Shown here in pieces: positions 3,634 to 9,690 of a DNA stretch of 64,000 nucleotides. The first letter of the stretch is position 1; every line of letters begins with the position of its first letter. The stretch is taken from the IMG/VR virus record IMGVR_UViG_3300031555_004297. One strand, 5' to 3'. The position numbers were made by a program, and so were the translations under genes. This DNA is from a virus. Lineage: Duplodnaviria; Caudoviricetes. The notes under the pieces were generated by a model. That model was given only the letters and a program-made list of their open reading frames with translations, did not search any database and was not told the origin of the DNA.

Positions 3634-3747
3634 AACTATTTTATAATTCATTCAAATGCCATTGGATGATAAAGGAATTTCATTCATATCAGTTGCTCCA
3701 TTTTTGTCTACATACTCTTAGCTGAGTATGTAGACGCTCTTTTGTTT
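3634..3747 (+). ncRNA. Candidate small RNA 2 (late promoter, anti-SD/start segment, 12-bp terminator)
   Basis: AACT-ATTTTA-TA at 3634-3645; CATATCAGTTGCTCCA at 3685-3700; stem 3706-3717/3724-3735 followed by a T-rich tract. Confidence 0.45.
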
Positions 3748-3762
3748 GAAAGGAGAATTTAT

Positions 3763-4578
3763 ATGCTTACACCAGTTTTAAATCCTTTATATGAGAATTT
3801 AAAGAAAGAGATAAAGCAATATGAGATAAATGAGCAATTATCATTTGATGAAACGCTCCAAGAATTAAGAAAGGACAAAGAAGATAATATTTATTCTATT
3901 TCTGGTCCAGATAAATATACTGGATCTGTATTTAGATCTAATAACTGTGGAGATTTTATGGTTACAGAATATTTCAATTATGATAAAATAGCCATAGTAT
4001 TTATGAATAGCGGATATAGAATGCTTGCTAGAGCTAATAATATCAATAAAGGTGAAGTCAAAGACCCTTATGCAAAATCTATTATGGGAGTTGGAAGTAT
4101 TGGAGTTGGCCCTTATAAAGTTGATGGTTCTCCATTTGAACGAATGATCTATTCTAGATGGAGAGGAATATTAGACAGATGCTATGTAAAGAAAGAACGA
4201 CGAAAAACAGTTCATTTTGAATGGCACAATTTCCAATACTTTGCTGCTTGGTTCACAGCAGAATTCTATTTGGTCCCATACAACACAATGTATGACATGG
4301 TAGTCGATAAGGATGTTCTAGTTCCAGGAAACGAAGAATATGGTCCTTATAGATGCCTGATACTCCCTAACTTTATAAATGCAAAAGTTCAGCTAAAAGA
4401 CTTCGAAATCGACAGAATTGAACGCCTTCAGAGCGGTACCATGACACAGTTTGAGATATTAAAGCTTTTTAAATATAAAGAAGAGAAAGAAGCCCGTATA
4501 AGATCCATGACGGAGGAATATCAAAATATTTTACCGCCGCATATATTTTTGGCAATTAAGAACTATAGAATGTTTTAA
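3763..4578 (+). CDS. Free-standing phage HNH-type homing endonuclease
   Basis: RBS AAAGGAG before ATG 3763; motifs YSRWRGILDRCY, EWHNFQYFAAW and DKDVLVPGNEEYGPYRCLILP typical of this phage endonuclease family. Confidence 0.75.
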   Translation: MLTPVLNPLYENLKKEIKQYEINEQLSFDETLQELRKDKEDNIYSISGPDKYTGSVFRSNNCGDFMVTEYFNYDKIAIVFMNSGYRMLARANNINKGEVKDPYAKSIMGVGSIGVGPYKVDGSPFERMIYSRWRGILDRCYVKKERRKTVHFEWHNFQYFAAWFTAEFYLVPYNTMYDMVVDKDVLVPGNEEYGPYRCLILPNFINAKVQLKDFEIDRIERLQSGTMTQFEILKLFKYKEEKEARIRSMTEEYQNILPPHIFLAIKNYRMF

Positions 4579-4685: not shown

Positions 4686-4823
4686 ATGATTAAAATTCGT
4701 AACACCCCCCCCCCATGTCAGATTAGCGTAAAATCTTTCACGGGGCTCTCTTCCCGAGAGGTAGTTGGGGAACACAAATCAAATGATGTTAACCACATTT
4801 CAAAGAGGGGAGGTGTCCTGTAA
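4686..4823 (+). CDS. 45-aa leader ORF with C10 tract, coupled (TAATG) to the DGR target gene
   Basis: RBS AAGGAGG 4671-4677; MIKIRNTPPPCQISVKSFTGLSSREVVGEHKSNDVNHISKRGGVL*; stop 4821-4823 overlaps ATG 4823. Confidence 0.6.
   Translation: MIKIRNTPPPCQISVKSFTGLSSREVVGEHKSNDVNHISKRGGVL
4705..4714 (+). repeat. Poly-C homopolymer (C10), possible slippage/phase-variation tract
   Basis: 10 consecutive C in an AT-rich genome, inside the leader ORF. Confidence 0.85.
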
Positions 4824-6223
4824 TGGGTCAGGCTTTAATTTCGCGTGGTGGTGGAGTTGGTGGTGCAGCAAAAGCTAAGGTGGAGATTATTGCTCCTCTT
4901 GGCGCAACACTTACGATATCCCAAGGCGATGTTGTCTTTACTAGAGAAGTAGAATCTTCTCCTGTGGAGATGAGCCTTGGGTATGGCGTTTGGACAATTT
5001 CTGCGTCCGGCGCTGCAACTAAAACCATCGATATTGATGTATTGAAGGTGTATGAAGTGAATGTAAGAGATGTAACTTATGGTATCAGTATTGATATGAG
5101 CAACGGCGCTCCTGCCGATGCTGTTACATATACTGATGATGCAGTGGGTTACTCCGCCCTGAGTTGTAACGATTCCACAGGTGCTTGTGATTACGGCAGC
5201 TGGGAAGGTGCAATTACAGGGATAATTGGATGTAAGCCTTGTCTTTATAAAGACGGTGCTCGTGTTGCATATCTCAATCCGAACAATTATGCTCAGCTTG
5301 AGAATGGCGGTGCCGCAGATATTACTTCCGGCAATGCTGGTGAAGTAATGGTTGAATTTAAGAAGACTTGGTATAAGTATGCAGTTTCTGGAGATACTTT
5401 GACTTTCCAGGTTGCCAACTACGATAGAACTGCAGATGGATTTGTCTGTTCTGCATTTAAGTCGAATGATGGCACTGCTACTGTAAAAGATTTTATGTAT
5501 TTCGGTGCTTATGAGGGCTATTCTGAAGGTGGAGATGATAAGTGTCATAGTTTGAGCGGTAAATCCGTTTGGAACAATAACTACTGGTCTTATTCTACTT
5601 TCAGAGATATCTGTAAGGCATTTGGCGCTAGTTATGGTATGGAAGACTGGGTTAAGAGATATTATATTCTCGGTTTGCTCATGCTTGTTACCAAGACTAG
5701 AGGTATTCAGGCCGCAATTGGAGATGGAAATGTCAATTCTGGAGATTTAATTAGTTCCGGATCTATGGATACTAGAGGCTTGTTCTATGGTATTAACGAT
5801 GATGGAAACACTGGCGTTAAAGCATTCGGAATTGAGCATCTCTGGGGTAATACTTATAGTTGGTGTGATGGTATCATTACTCTATCTGAATCGACTATTG
5901 GTCTTAAGGAGTGTGCTCCTTATAATGATAGTGGAGAAGGATATACTTCTGTTGCTGATGGAGCTACTAGAGGTTCATGGCAATATCCTACAAAGATGAC
6001 TCCTGTTCTTGGAGGAGCAGCAGTTGTAGCATCTACAACTCAGTCAGATTCTAACATTGGCTGGTGCGATGGCGTGTGTGTCGATGACTGCTCTGGCTAT
6101 GTTGCACAGGTTGGCGGCCACTGCAGCGCTGGTATTGGGGGTGGTGGCCCCTTCTGCGTCGTTATCGACTACAGCCCCAGCGACGGCAACGGCTATTGTG
6201 TGGGGCGGCTCGTTTCCGCCTAA
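4823..6223 (+). CDS. DGR target protein: probable receptor-binding/tail protein with C-terminal C-type-lectin-like (Mtd/FGE-type) domain
   Basis: 3' end contains the VR; motifs FGIEHLWGNTYSWCDG, VAQVGG and terminal VGRLV resemble CLec-fold DGR targets; RBS GGGAGGTG. Confidence 0.9.
   Translation: MGQALISRGGGVGGAAKAKVEIIAPLGATLTISQGDVVFTREVESSPVEMSLGYGVWTISASGAATKTIDIDVLKVYEVNVRDVTYGISIDMSNGAPADAVTYTDDAVGYSALSCNDSTGACDYGSWEGAITGIIGCKPCLYKDGARVAYLNPNNYAQLENGGAADITSGNAGEVMVEFKKTWYKYAVSGDTLTFQVANYDRTADGFVCSAFKSNDGTATVKDFMYFGAYEGYSEGGDDKCHSLSGKSVWNNNYWSYSTFRDICKAFGASYGMEDWVKRYYILGLLMLVTKTRGIQAAIGDGNVNSGDLISSGSMDTRGLFYGINDDGNTGVKAFGIEHLWGNTYSWCDGIITLSESTIGLKECAPYNDSGEGYTSVADGATRGSWQYPTKMTPVLGGAAVVASTTQSDSNIGWCDGVCVDDCSGYVAQVGGHCSAGIGGGGPFCVVIDYSPSDGNGYCVGRLVSA
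6069..6223 (+). repeat. DGR variable repeat (VR)
   Basis: 155-bp ungapped match to 6594-6748; 26 mismatches, all opposite TR adenines. Confidence 0.97.
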
Positions 6224-6246
6224 TCCCTCGCCGAGTCAGGGGTGGT

Positions 6247-6272
6247 GTGGAGGGGACCACAGTCCCCTCCAC
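6247..6272 (+). promoter_or_regulatory. GC-rich hairpin/cruciform downstream of VR (DGR target-recognition element)
   Basis: GTGGAGGGGAC-CACA-GTCCCCTCCAC, 11-bp stem with 4-nt loop; position matches the post-IMH hairpin of Bordetella BPP-1 DGR. Confidence 0.8.
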
Positions 6273-6276
6273 TACT

Positions 6277-6330: not shown

Positions 6331-6386
6331 ACATAAAATCTTACGATCTTACTTTTAAAACTTTCATAGAAAGGAGGATGGTAAAT

Positions 6387-6908
6387 ATGATTAAATTTAT
6401 TAATAACACTTGTATTTTTCATAAGATGAATAAATGTATACAGAATAAAATTGTTGTTTGTAAACTTACTAACTATTTAAATAGATCATGCAAACACATC
6501 GTTTCGTATTTGAATAGAACTAGTAAATTTATTCATAAGAGTGCTGGACGATGGCATCTTCTAGGGATAACGGAGAATCTCGTTCTGCGGGGTATGGCGT
6601 GTATGTCAATGACAACTCTGGCTATGTTGCACAGGTTGGCGGCAACTACAACAATGGTATTGAGAATGGTGGCCCCTTCTACGTCAATATCAACAACAAC
6701 CCCAACAACAACAACAACAATTATGTGGGGCGGCTCGTTTCCGCCTAAACCTATTCTGGACAATAGATCGATCTTGTCTATAGATCAAGCATTCTCGAGA
6801 GTGTTTTCTATTGCGGATAACTCCGATTCATCGAGTGTTACCAGTGTATATCTGAACTCTTTCTTGACTTCGAATTACAGGATGACTAAGAAGCATTGTA
6901 CAACATAG
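6387..6908 (+). CDS. Possible 173-aa ORF at the usual avd position, reading through TR out of the VR frame
   Basis: Strong RBS AAAGGAGG before ATG 6387; open to 6908; no Avd-like features visible. Confidence 0.3.
   Translation: MIKFINNTCIFHKMNKCIQNKIVVCKLTNYLNRSCKHIVSYLNRTSKFIHKSAGRWHLLGITENLVLRGMACMSMTTLAMLHRLAATTTMVLRMVAPSTSISTTTPTTTTTIMWGGSFPPKPILDNRSILSIDQAFSRVFSIADNSDSSSVTSVYLNSFLTSNYRMTKKHCTT
6594..6748 (+). ncRNA. DGR template repeat (TR)
   Basis: AAC/AAT-rich copy of VR, ending in the G/C element GTGGGGCGGC and CTCGTTTCCGCCTAA; lies upstream of RT. Confidence 0.97.
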
Positions 6909-7094
6909 GTGAATTCAACTCCGTTGAACCTTACCGGAAACGGTAAAATATTGCCCGTCTCGAGGTGGACTAGTAGCTTAAATGTCGAAGATCCGCTAGG
7001 GCTTGAATAGGGTTTAAACCTTATTCTAAAAGCTTAATAGACGAAAGACTTTAAGTCTTAGCAAAATAAATCATCTTAAGGAGGAAAATATTTT
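6749..7094 (+). ncRNA. DGR RNA spacer region (structured)
   Basis: Hairpins: TTCAAC/GTTGAA at about 6914-6928; TTACCG-GAAA-CGGTAA 6931-6946; GTGGA..CTAGTAG..TCGAAG..TCCGC at about 6965-6996; GAATAGGGTT/AACCTTATTC at about 7005-7026. Confidence 0.65.
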
Positions 7095-8600
7095 ATGCCT
7101 AAACGAACTGGACATCTATATGAGAAGATGCTTTCAATTAGAGTAGCGAGTGAAGCCTTTGATGGTGCTATGAGAGATAAGAAATTCAAGCACCGACCTG
7201 GTAGCATAGCTTTTATGCTTTACCATAACCGAGACTATTATATTGCTGAGGTAGGTCGTATATTAGAGACAGAATCATTCAAACCAAAGAAGCCAAGAGA
7301 GAGTATTAGATTGGATGCTGGTAGTGGAAAAGAACGCCATATCCAAGCCCCTGCTTTATTCCCAGATCAGATAGTTCATTGGTGTGTAATGCTTGTTCTT
7401 CAAGACATATTTTTGAAAGGAATGGATACATGGTGTTGTGCGAGTGTAAAGGGACGAGGTACCCTTTACGCTAAAAATTTTATTGAACGAACTCTTGATA
7501 ATTCTCAAGGTATAACAGGGCGAGATGCTCCTGAGCGGAAATACAAATACTGTCTAAAAATGGATATTAGAAAATTCTTTGAGAATATTGATAGAGGGAT
7601 TCTAATAGATAAACTAGAATCTAAAATCAAAGATCCTAAAATGATTAAGATCTGCTCAGATATAATTTATTCTGTTCCAGGACAGGGTCTTCCATTAGGA
7701 TACTATACATCTCAATGGTTTGCTAATTTTTATTTGCAATCATTCGATCATTATTTAAGAGAAGTTCTTATGCCTAAGTATGGTGTGGACTTCTATATTA
7801 GATATATGGATGATATGCTTATTATGGGAAGTAATAAAAGGAAATTAGCCCAACTTAAAGGAGAGATATCTCAATATCTTCATGATAATCTTAAGCTAGA
7901 ATTAAAGAATACTACAAGAATATTCTCTATTGCAGAATGTCCGATAGATTATATTGGATTTAGATTTTCTTATGGTAAAACAGTATTAAGAAAGAATATA
8001 TTGCATAGAGCTAGAGGCGCAAATGAAAGACTTTATAATGGTAAATTCCATATTAAAGAATTAAGAAGCTCTATGGCATATAATGGATGGATTCAGAATA
8101 CAGACACCAAACAATATAGAGCTCAGCATATGCAAGGATCTGTATATCTAGAACGAAAGAAAATTAGTGAATTCTCTAAGATTGAGCGATTAGAAACCTT
8201 AGCTTCCGAAAGGTATAAGCGGACTATAAGAATTGAAGAAGATATAATAAATCTTCGTCAAGAAACAGAGCTTGGTGATGGAGTTGTACTTATACGCCAT
8301 TATCCAGATAGGCACGATCAAGTCCGAGTAGTAGCTCGAAGCCGATATAGGTTTCCAGATCAAAACGAATATGAGGAAGAACTTAGAAAAGCTGCTGAAG
8401 AAAAGGCTAATAAGAAGAAAAAGAAACATAAAAAGAAAAAGCATAAACCTGGAGAAGCTTATAGAGCTCCAGCAGAGAGATATTTTGCAGAAGAAGGCAT
8501 GGAAGAAATTTATGCTCGAGATTATAATCAAAATATAAAAGATTATGATATCTATAGAGACCGACAAAACACAAAGGACGATTGGTATAAAGCCAAATAA
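7095..8600 (+). CDS. DGR reverse transcriptase with long basic C-terminal extension
   Basis: Motifs LKMDIRKFF, GLPLGYYTSQWFANFYL (DGR-type SQ) and YIRYMDD; adjacent TR/VR pair. Confidence 0.95.
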   Translation: MPKRTGHLYEKMLSIRVASEAFDGAMRDKKFKHRPGSIAFMLYHNRDYYIAEVGRILETESFKPKKPRESIRLDAGSGKERHIQAPALFPDQIVHWCVMLVLQDIFLKGMDTWCCASVKGRGTLYAKNFIERTLDNSQGITGRDAPERKYKYCLKMDIRKFFENIDRGILIDKLESKIKDPKMIKICSDIIYSVPGQGLPLGYYTSQWFANFYLQSFDHYLREVLMPKYGVDFYIRYMDDMLIMGSNKRKLAQLKGEISQYLHDNLKLELKNTTRIFSIAECPIDYIGFRFSYGKTVLRKNILHRARGANERLYNGKFHIKELRSSMAYNGWIQNTDTKQYRAQHMQGSVYLERKKISEFSKIERLETLASERYKRTIRIEEDIINLRQETELGDGVVLIRHYPDRHDQVRVVARSRYRFPDQNEYEEELRKAAEEKANKKKKKHKKKKHKPGEAYRAPAERYFAEEGMEEIYARDYNQNIKDYDIYRDRQNTKDDWYKAK

Positions 8601-8607
8601 ATAAACT

Positions 8608-8643
8608 ATGACAAGAGGGTCACGCCTCTTGTCATTTTCTTTT
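8608..8643 (+). terminator. Intrinsic terminator after RT
   Basis: ATGACAAGAGG/CCTCTTGTCAT plus TTTCTTTT. Confidence 0.8.
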
Positions 8644-8644
8644 C

Positions 8645-8719
8645 GTAAAACTCTTATTTTTCTCTTATATATCATTCGCGTGAAGAAAAAGAATAATTTA
8701 ATTTTCGACACAAATTATT
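8645..8719 (+). repeat. ~75-bp degenerate direct repeat (copy 2 at 9158-9232) carrying an ATATATCAT promoter-like core
   Basis: Shared blocks TTTCTCTTATATATCATT, GCGTGA and TCGACACAAA in both copies. Confidence 0.8.
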
Positions 8720-8754: not shown

Positions 8755-9087
8755 ATGAATACTGCAGTCGAAACTATTACTAATCCAAAGGATTTGCTTG
8801 AAAGAAAACCTATCTCCAAAGGAGACTTCGTTACACCTAGAGATGATAGCGATATCGTTAAGCTCTATGTAGTAAAATCTATTAATGATAATCTTGCGAC
8901 TCTCCTCTATCTTAATCTCACACATGAGATGGATGATATAGAGTTAAAAGAAATTGCTATGCCAGTAGATTATCTGATATTTGCAGATGATTCTTTTGCC
9001 TCCGTTGGAGGACTGCTATGGCAAGTTAGAGAAGCAGTCCTCTCGAACAGAAAATGCACATCATGTAATATCGATATACATATCTAA
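8755..9087 (+). CDS. Hypothetical protein (110 aa)
   Basis: RBS AAAGGAG before ATG 8755; followed by a 17-bp hairpin at about 9103-9143. Confidence 0.7.
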   Translation: MNTAVETITNPKDLLERKPISKGDFVTPRDDSDIVKLYVVKSINDNLATLLYLNLTHEMDDIELKEIAMPVDYLIFADDSFASVGGLLWQVREAVLSNRKCTSCNIDIHI

Positions 9088-9194
9088 TTCAGGGTTGTAA
9101 ATATATTGAAGAGAGAAGTTCTCCAGACTTCTCTCTTCAATATAACTCAATTAGACTGTAAAAGTCCTTTCTTTCTCTTATATATCATTGGCGT

Positions 9195-9690
9195 GATAAA
9201 AGAGAATGTTTTAATAATCGACACAAAATATTTTCCTATTACATATTCCTGCGTCATGATGAATTTTGAGGCGTGTATTCATCATCGTCGTTTACTGTAT
9301 ATAAACATACGCACATGTCTCCTTTCTTAATTTTGGTTGGGAAGCATCTTATACCTCCATATTGTGGAAATCACACACCTACAACCTGGTTATCCACAAT
9401 TCTGCCTCCTTTCTGACCTACCTCTTCTAAAACTTCTACATATTACTGATCATGAATAAAAGTATAATCAACAGCCCACAACTGTTGATTAGAAATATAG
9501 TTCAATCGAGTAATGGATAAGTTTATAGGTCTCAAAGATATAATATGTACTCATGTCTTGGCAGTTTTACGACAAGTTGTCTAGTATTATTTGGGAATGG
9601 TAGCTCAAATAATATTTAGATGAGGATAATGATTGCTTTTCAATAGCCAGGGTAGAGCTCGTGTACTCACTCTACCCTGGCTTCTTCTGT
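9195..9690 (+). ncRNA. Candidate ~490-nt structured RNA with several C-rich anti-SD tracts
   Basis: Lies after repeat copy 2; no credible ORF; five or more hairpins; tracts CTCCTTTC, ACCTCC, GCCTCCTTTC, ACCTCTTC; ends at stem AGCCAGGGTAGAG/CTCTACCCTGGCT. Confidence 0.45.

Follow-up and report, generated by a model that had tools for sequence, protein, structure and literature searches.

How a diversity-generating retroelement (DGR) operates without an accessory protein, and what a long C-terminal extension might contribute to its reverse transcriptase (RT), are the questions raised by a cassette in IMG/VR virus record IMGVR_UViG_3300031555_004297, a 185-kb record of a giant gut phage (Caudoviricetes; CheckV completeness estimate, 75%) from which a stretch of 64,000 nucleotides (the window) was analyzed. 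Work to date on the mechanism and engineering of DGRs rests on the Bordetella RT of the BPP-1 DGR (bRT) plus Avd, and Wu et al. 2018 (PMC5758913) raised the question of how DGRs without accessory genes, ~29% of the total, function. The RT of the window (7095-8600, + strand) is 501 amino acids (aa) long, and a first-pass annotation, made from the sequence alone, had proposed that its basic C-terminal extension may substitute for Avd and give a single-protein DGR. The overall reading reached here, to which we assign about even probability, is that the RT belongs to an accessory-free DGR lineage, one jumbo-phage sub-lineage of which gained, stepwise, a cis domain predicted to dock on the N-terminal (NTE) subdomain of the enzyme.

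An extended reverse transcriptase in a lineage without Avd

Judged by its sequence, the cassette is a real DGR and is of the accessory-free ‘target-TR-RT’ type. The variable repeat (VR) and template repeat (TR) form a 158-nt repeat with 27 mismatches, 27 of 27 at an adenine of the TR, and the adjacent DGR-type RT, the sole RT in the 185-kb record, is closest to bRT. PF05635 (23S_rRNA_IVP), PF22296 (bAvd, the Pfam family to which BPP-1 Avd belongs, rather than PF05635), HRDC, and BPP-1 Avd itself had no match in the record (75% complete), in keeping with DGR Architecture A, the TR-RT core without an accessory gene. The first-pass statement that the cassette holds no Avd-like open reading frame (ORF) is therefore borne out, within the reach of these tools, by a search of the whole record, for which BPP-1 served as the positive control (E 2.2e-37). 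Among the neighbors of the RT there was also no accessory match in Pfam or NCBIfam, MSL and CH1 not having been searched by models of their own.

Avd is absent across the lineage as surveyed by profile search, with no match to PF05635 or PF22296 in 40 related viral records (38 with short RTs; 17 at least 90% complete) and no Avd match in a 224-kb relative (G001, 90% complete). The short RTs of the Avd-less related records are 340-420 aa in length, and their loci are compact, with a VR-TR gap of ~60-130 nt and a TR-RT gap of ~97-149 nt in most, the latter leaving no room for avd. Most of the short-RT loci have 9-28 VR/TR mismatches, at least 80% of which are at TR adenines, and in many of the loci exclusively so. 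A conserved small gene beside the short RTs was considered as a candidate accessory and rejected, as the clustering of 1,057 neighboring ORFs yielded only TR/VR-coded peptides and ordinary downstream phage genes. The suggested co-occurrence of avd absence with the extension thus breaks down in the 38 short-RT records, which have neither avd nor the extension.

In a tree of the RT core rooted on bRT, the long forms constitute one clade nested among the short forms, and the length of the extension changes stepwise on the RT tree, from 20-45 to 41-58, then 68-73, and finally 127-181 aa. Because the extension is a derived gain within an Avd-less lineage, Avd-free operation predates it. The ~30 clusters with the extension are, where the context is known, all from RNA-polymerase-encoding jumbo phages, and the RTs that possess the part of the extension predicted to dock on the NTE (see below) sit, again where genome context is known, in large phage contigs. 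The window itself encodes a multisubunit RNA-polymerase beta subunit (1-2325, - strand). Five of the contigs are syntenic with the window (L001, 244 kb; L004, 224 kb; L084, 172 kb; L085, 128 kb; L086, 85 kb), while three have other or unseen surroundings (L003, 253 kb; L087, 246 kb; L005, 29 kb, a fragment with an estimated 11% of its genome). Of the contigs behind L001, L003, and L087, the analysis covered 13-17 kb each.

The best match of the RT in the PDB, both by sequence and by fold, is bRT (8ub7; chain 8ub7_A, 328 aa). Pfam RVT_1 spans RT residues 133-290, the RT family aligns with bRT in hhalign at E 2.7e-34, and residues 2-351 of the predicted model are structurally equivalent to bRT residues 2-326 (Z 32.4; root-mean-square deviation, 2.3 Å; 324 aligned). 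As the full bRT aligns to residues 2-351, the end of the core is placed at about residue 351 and, going by alignment and model, the whole known DGR RT is contained in residues 1-351, with residues 352-501 being extra. The first-pass annotation had ended the core near AYNGWIQNTD, at about residue 340, which is roughly right, though this motif occupies residues 328-337 and the core runs on to ~351; its placement of the extension at 8140-8600 agrees well with residues 352-501, encoded by window 8148-8597.

Past the core, the helical segment, small beta region, and basic run KANKKKKKHKKKKHK (residues 437-451) that had been read from the 501-aa ORF can all be seen in the AlphaFold2 model of the full-length RT (69-sequence alignment; mean pLDDT, 92; pTM, 0.84), in which residues 350-440 have a pLDDT of at least 95. 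The extension begins with two helices (350-370 and 372-391), continues with two strands (397-403 and 409-416) and a third helix (423-446), and then passes into a low-confidence Lys-rich stretch, a short turn (460-463), and a last helix (470-500). Folded alone, the extension reaches a pTM of 0.49, as long helices broken by the beta hairpin, and its fold matches are generic helical ones only.

A search with the core (residues 1-345) as the query found 1,811 relatives, of which the ~30 closest clusters (at least 48% identity) are 440-532 aa long and the more distant relatives 317-424 aa. The length and motifs of the extension are conserved in ~30 protein clusters at core identities as low as ~50%, so the extension is not a product of chance. 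The long forms have in common the helices, the pattern VL[IV]RYY...D..R[IV]VAR..FPD, a K/R-rich patch, and two tail motifs, which in alignment A2 are Y-[YN]-P-[ST]-A-E-I-[YF]-F (YRAPAERYF in the window, residues 456-464) and, in the tail helix, [RK]-[DE]-Y-N-x-[EN]-I (residues 475-481). The helices and beta hairpin are present in every RT with an extension of at least 68 aa, and RTs of intermediate length (415-427 aa) carry these elements only. The extension is most readily understood as a derived domain in cis with two modules, module 1 with the helices and the beta hairpin and module 2 with the Lys-rich stretch and the tail.

Relatives of this domain were sought by sequence and by fold. A word-seeded search of 5.8 billion proteins for homologs outside of the RT clade returned three clusters, and a full HMMER search against 1.84 billion representatives returned six matches, six of six within the RT clade and none a stand-alone protein of a different kind. 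There was no significant Pfam or NCBIfam family for the extension, the only Pfam hit to residues 345-501 being AlkA_N (E 0.16). With the extension alone as the query, Foldseek against the PDB gave a best E of 0.26, VIA-align against 48,161 chains gave a best Z of 4.9 with generic helical hairpins only, and the ESM Atlas gave a TM of at most 0.34 by shape and at most 0.37 for the Atlas's own model; these fold searches listed no Avd, HRDC, or intron D-domain chain and nothing above background. The extension is a conserved, derived domain without a known relative.

One metagenomic protein of 120 aa (P0123) consists of 26 residues matching the middle of an HNH-like gene upstream of the cassette (window 3742-4578) followed by the RT extension from the beta hairpin on. 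From its sequence, this protein would be either an assembly chimera or a natural deletion of the target, TR, and RT core.

Predicted docking, the Lys-rich tail, and the spacer RNA

For the docking test, the RT was split at residue 351 and the core (1-351) was paired with the extension (352-501), both being halves of one chain, alongside three controls. The docking score (ipSAE) was 0.73, compared with 0.00 for the best of the three controls. Of 80 solved complexes 58 come up to this mark, and of 110 mismatched pairs 2 do, counts that are rough as the alignment was custom. Between runs, at least 39% of contacts agree, with a partner pLDDT of at least 61, and since no similar complex occurs among solved structures the docking is not the recall of a known one. 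In the confident predicted contacts, residues 376-384, 396-404, and 408-426 of the extension meet core positions 13-18, 33-36, and 40-58, which belong to the NTE. The model supports, but does not show, the binding of module 1 to this subdomain.

Conservation falls on the same surfaces, as the best-conserved residues of the extension (L399, R401, I384, and P421) and of the long-form NTE (P35, F40, N45, and Y48) sit in the predicted interface. The RT has a lysine at position 29 that aligns with Lys29 of bRT and is invariant in alignment A2, and the NTE loop next to it holds a 4-residue insertion (approximately residues 34-37), a position at which bRT is short by 7 residues. The insertion is found in 34 of 34 RTs in A5 with an extension of at least 68 aa and an intact N-terminus (P35 at 89%), while the shorter RTs whose N-terminus is intact are, with one exception, without it or have only two of the four residues.

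The location of the predicted contacts can be compared with the cryo-EM structure of bRT (bioRxiv 10.1101/2023.10.23.563531), in which the NTE is the Avd-binding subdomain and Lys29 touches a template phosphate from ‘a loop braced by Avd’; the role proposed there for Avd is to place the template:primer duplex, directly or by way of the NTE. Contact with the NTE subdomain of the RT, taken as a mark of Avd, is made by the extension by prediction only.

Beyond module 1, most full-length members possess a basic patch with 8-14 K/R per 20 residues. The core has an isoelectric point (pI) of ~9.6, and the net charge of the extension over the clade ranges from -6 to +20, with several members near zero. 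The RT of L005 (4165-5445, 426 aa) stops right after the beta hairpin, with no remnant of the tail in any frame, and its TR/VR pair has 17 mismatches, 17 of 17 at TR adenines. A second variant, P0025, has an acidic tail in place of the Lys-rich tail and retains module 1. The Lys-rich tail is the less essential part of the extension, and the emphasis that the first-pass annotation had put on the basic run does not fit these two natural variants, which do without it and keep the docking module.

The spacer between the TR and the RT contains an RNA element resembling RT-18 (RF03021). RT-18 scored above its gathering threshold (41.3 bits) in the spacers of nine of nine short-RT loci tested and of L006 (46-69 bits), and thus in each of the 10 shorter-RT loci. 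The jumbo-phage forms are divergent, with scores below gathering in the window (26.8 bits), L001 (27.6 bits), and L004 (32.9 bits). The element ends from a few to ~90 nt before the RT start (e.g., L006 7830-7910 and L033 7905-7983), and by analogy looks like the counterpart, in this lineage, of the BPP-1 spacer RNA. L001 and L084-L086 have a variable hairpin inserted within the core of this RNA. RT length and spacer length are correlated (rho 0.43, n=65), and binding of the extra spacer RNA by the extension was considered and rejected: the extra 180 nt are poorly conserved (alignment A7) and do not fold better than shuffled sequence (z -1.0), and common ancestry confounds the correlation.

What the extension may do

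Under the reading preferred here, the DGR lineage would run without Avd, its spacer carrying the RT-18-type element, and in jumbo phages with their own RNA polymerase the RT would have acquired, step by step, its C-terminal cis domain. The first module (residues 352 to ~436) would leave the thumb, fold back onto the NTE, and pack on the enlarged loop beside the template-contacting Lys29, with a place and a job matching those of Avd, which serves the Bordetella enzyme in trans. The second module (residues 437-501), a flexible Lys-rich linker and then two conserved short motifs, most likely adds non-specific binding of nucleic acid or a docking site, and some natural variants are without it. We infer from these features an effect of the extension on cDNA synthesis. 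Several points weigh against this reading. Those short relatives that have neither Avd nor the extension appear to be active, and the module is accordingly dispensable, in general, for functioning without Avd. In the long-RT loci the extra spacer RNA, being poorly conserved and not unusually stable, is no obvious RNA partner of the domain. The docking was predicted for the two halves of a single chain, and the match with Avd holds at the level of the subdomain. Further, the NTE insertion and the extension could stem from a single evolutionary event and may not amount to many independent observations.

A stronger claim would make the extension a true Avd surrogate, required for cDNA synthesis and replacing the Avd scaffold, including its non-specific RNA/DNA binding via the Lys run, in an enzyme that is self-sufficient because of the extension. 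We consider this unlikely. Predicted docking on the Avd-binding subdomain beside Lys29, with the co-varying insertion, speaks for such a surrogate, as do the basic patch in most full-length members and the lack of an Avd/HRDC match in the record, but the short-RT relatives that have neither Avd nor the extension still show A-only VR/TR differences, and the extension arose inside a lineage already free of Avd. It also bears no sequence likeness to Avd (hhalign probability of 0.1% for the extension profile against BPP-1 Avd), while the Lys-rich tail is not in L005 or P0025 and the charge of the whole extension is near zero in several members. The substitution proposed by the first-pass annotation keeps its footing in the predicted docking by Lys29 and loses it on sequence likeness, on the Avd-less short relatives, and on the derived origin of the extension, which is an add-on and not a proven Avd replacement. 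It is likewise doubtful, at the level of a tentative proposal, that module 1 is an independently arisen cis analog of Avd bracing the Lys29 loop for template:primer positioning, with the Lys-rich tail tethering the ribonucleoprotein or the cDNA to the phage replication machinery.

Three other explanations give the extension different work or almost none. A tethering or targeting role, in which the Lys-rich linker and motifs recruit the RT to a phage partner (replication machinery, compartment, or virion) and so couple cDNA synthesis to the site of VR replacement, seems to us quite unlikely; a low-confidence linker, a conserved 9-residue motif, and a short conserved helix have the architecture typical of linear docking motifs, and the long RT occurs in jumbo phages with their own RNA polymerase wherever genome context is known, yet the tail is lost in L005 and P0025, and the RT, as read from its sequence, does not carry the [LF]-x-[EDK]-P-M-x-F tag of the phage. 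The position of the extension directly after the thumb, as in the group II intron RTs to which DGR RTs are closest, and the conserved Arg residues in its beta hairpin would suit a post-thumb domain like the D domain of those enzymes, which would aid the cDNA in finding or invading the VR. This is very unlikely, as structural alignments with intron RTs, GsI-IIC among them, break off at model residues ~355-376, searches with the fold of the extension alone listed no intron RT, and the predicted contacts are on the NTE and not in a duplex-binding cleft. Finally, in the jumbo-phage lineage the RT is lengthened along with the spacer and the VR-TR gap, which fits relaxed compaction, and the extra RNA is poorly conserved, as would be expected of a lineage-specific structural accretion with little DGR-specific role (e.g., an aid to folding or stability in large, weakly streamlined genomes). 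Extension motifs conserved to ~50% core identity, a very confident predicted fold, and conserved interface residues make accretion highly improbable.

The lineage offers a graded natural series of Avd-free systems with RT-18-type spacer RNA, from RTs of 350 aa, to RTs of ~425 aa with the docking module, to RTs of ~500 aa that have the Lys-rich tail as well. Should the docking module do the work of Avd, the two would be convergent solutions to one structural need; if the cis-analog reading is true, it would be a second, unrelated solution to the DGR scaffold problem, in a self-contained enzyme with modules that could be grafted onto other RTs. The idea of a single-protein DGR made possible by the extension is not supported, the 350-aa relatives being simpler candidates, and for a practical one-protein DGR these short relatives are a better starting point than the RT of the window.

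The cassette, its neighbors, and known systems

The features of the cassette, from the target gene to a hairpin that closes it, are collected in Table 1.

Table 1. Coordinates of the DGR cassette features in the 64,000-nt window
Feature	Coordinates	Strand	Basis or remark
DGR target gene, 466 aa, tail protein phrog_5302	4823..6223	+	VR at its 3' end
Variable repeat (VR)	6069..6226	+	Direct repeat with TR, 83% identity, mismatches all at TR adenines
GC-rich hairpin immediately 3' of VR	6240..6276	+	Read from sequence; kept in L001
Template repeat (TR)	6594..6751	+	Repeat pair with VR
TR-RT spacer, 343 nt	6752..7094	+	Exceeds that of short-RT relatives by ~230 nt (most have 97-149 nt)
RT-18-like RNA core within spacer, divergent	6932..7010	+	26.8 bits, model 1-84, below Rfam gathering 41.3
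RT core, residues 1-351 (NTE, fingers, palm, thumb)	7095..8147	+	8ub7_A structural match; hhalign
Extension module 1, residues 352-436: helical hairpin, beta hairpin (VLIRHY / VRVVAR), start of third helix	8148..8402	+	pLDDT at least 95
Lys-rich run KANKKKKKHKKKKHK, residues 437-451	8403..8447	+	Low pLDDT past residue 446
Tail, residues 452-501, and stop codon	8448..8600	+	Conserved motifs; not in L005, P0025
Terminator-like hairpin (8608-8635) with T-run to 8645	8608..8645	+	8 nt past RT stop codon; closes cassette

An HNH-endonuclease-like gene (phrog_2081, E 2e-26; window 3742-4578) lies just upstream of the DGR target and is syntenic in L001, L084, L085, and L086. Within the cassette, a strong Shine-Dalgarno sequence and ATG (6387) open a 173-codon frame through the TR (window 6371-6908). 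The Shine-Dalgarno sequence and the first residues of this frame (MIKFINNT / MKIKYLKNT) are common to the window and L001, and over seven loci only the TR-coded part aligns. As a hidden accessory gene, the ORF (6387-6908) was rejected; it is called in every long-RT locus and aligns only over the TR-coded stretch, and is therefore taken as an artifact of a stop-free TR. From its sequence, the frame is unlikely to be a true protein, and ribosomes may load on the DGR RNA.

Directly 3' of the RT, an ORF of 110 aa (window 8755-9087) with no family match is kept in the long-RT loci L001, L002, L004, L084, L085, and L086. It was rejected as an accessory factor, being acidic (pI 4.7), located behind the terminator and its own repeated promoter-like element, and not in L003, L005, or L087. 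The repeat in question, a 39-nt direct repeat (window 8645-8683 and 9158-9196, 87% identical) that contains TTTCTCTTATATATCATT, lies ahead of both the 110-aa ORF and the next intergenic region and may be a phage promoter or regulatory element.

The DGR of BPP-1 (bRT and Avd) shares with the cassette the full length of the RT core fold, Lys29, adenine-specific TR/VR differences, a GC hairpin after the VR, and a spacer RNA between the TR and RT. The cassette differs in being without an avd gene, in an RT that exceeds bRT by 173 residues (150 aa of C-terminal domain and insertions in the core, including the longer Lys29 loop), and in a spacer RNA of the RT-18 type as opposed to the BPP-1 Sp architecture. 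Group II intron RTs with a D domain (GsI-IIC RT, 6ar1) are alike in having the NTE, fingers, palm, and thumb (Z ~26) and an extra post-thumb domain, but no structural alignment to them reaches the extension of the window RT. Closer at hand, the short-RT DGRs of gut phages (e.g., L033, L050, and L012) belong to the same RT lineage (35-43% identity) and have no Avd, the same target-TR-RT-18-RT layout, and A-only VR/TR mismatches, while their RTs are 340-400 aa long with neither the docking module nor the NTE insertion, their spacers are 97-149 nt in most as compared to 343 nt, and their genomes are 20-65 kb.

Both DGRs without Avd and RTs with up to ~150 aa added at the C-terminus were known before. 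In the survey of Wu et al. 2018 (PMC5758913), 29% of 372 DGRs were without accessory genes (Architecture A), one RT lineage was entirely without avd, and ~20% of DGR RTs had unexplained post-thumb extensions of up to ~150 aa. The window cassette resembles the Architecture A systems and extended RTs of that survey in its target-TR-RT order, its lack of an accessory gene, and a post-thumb extension without a recognized motif. Whereas the extensions were left uncharacterized there, the one described here is assigned to a single jumbo-phage clade and has a confident predicted fold, predicted docking on the NTE with a co-varying insertion, and a stepwise history; these, together with the tie between the Avd-less lineage and RT-18 RNA, are what is new.

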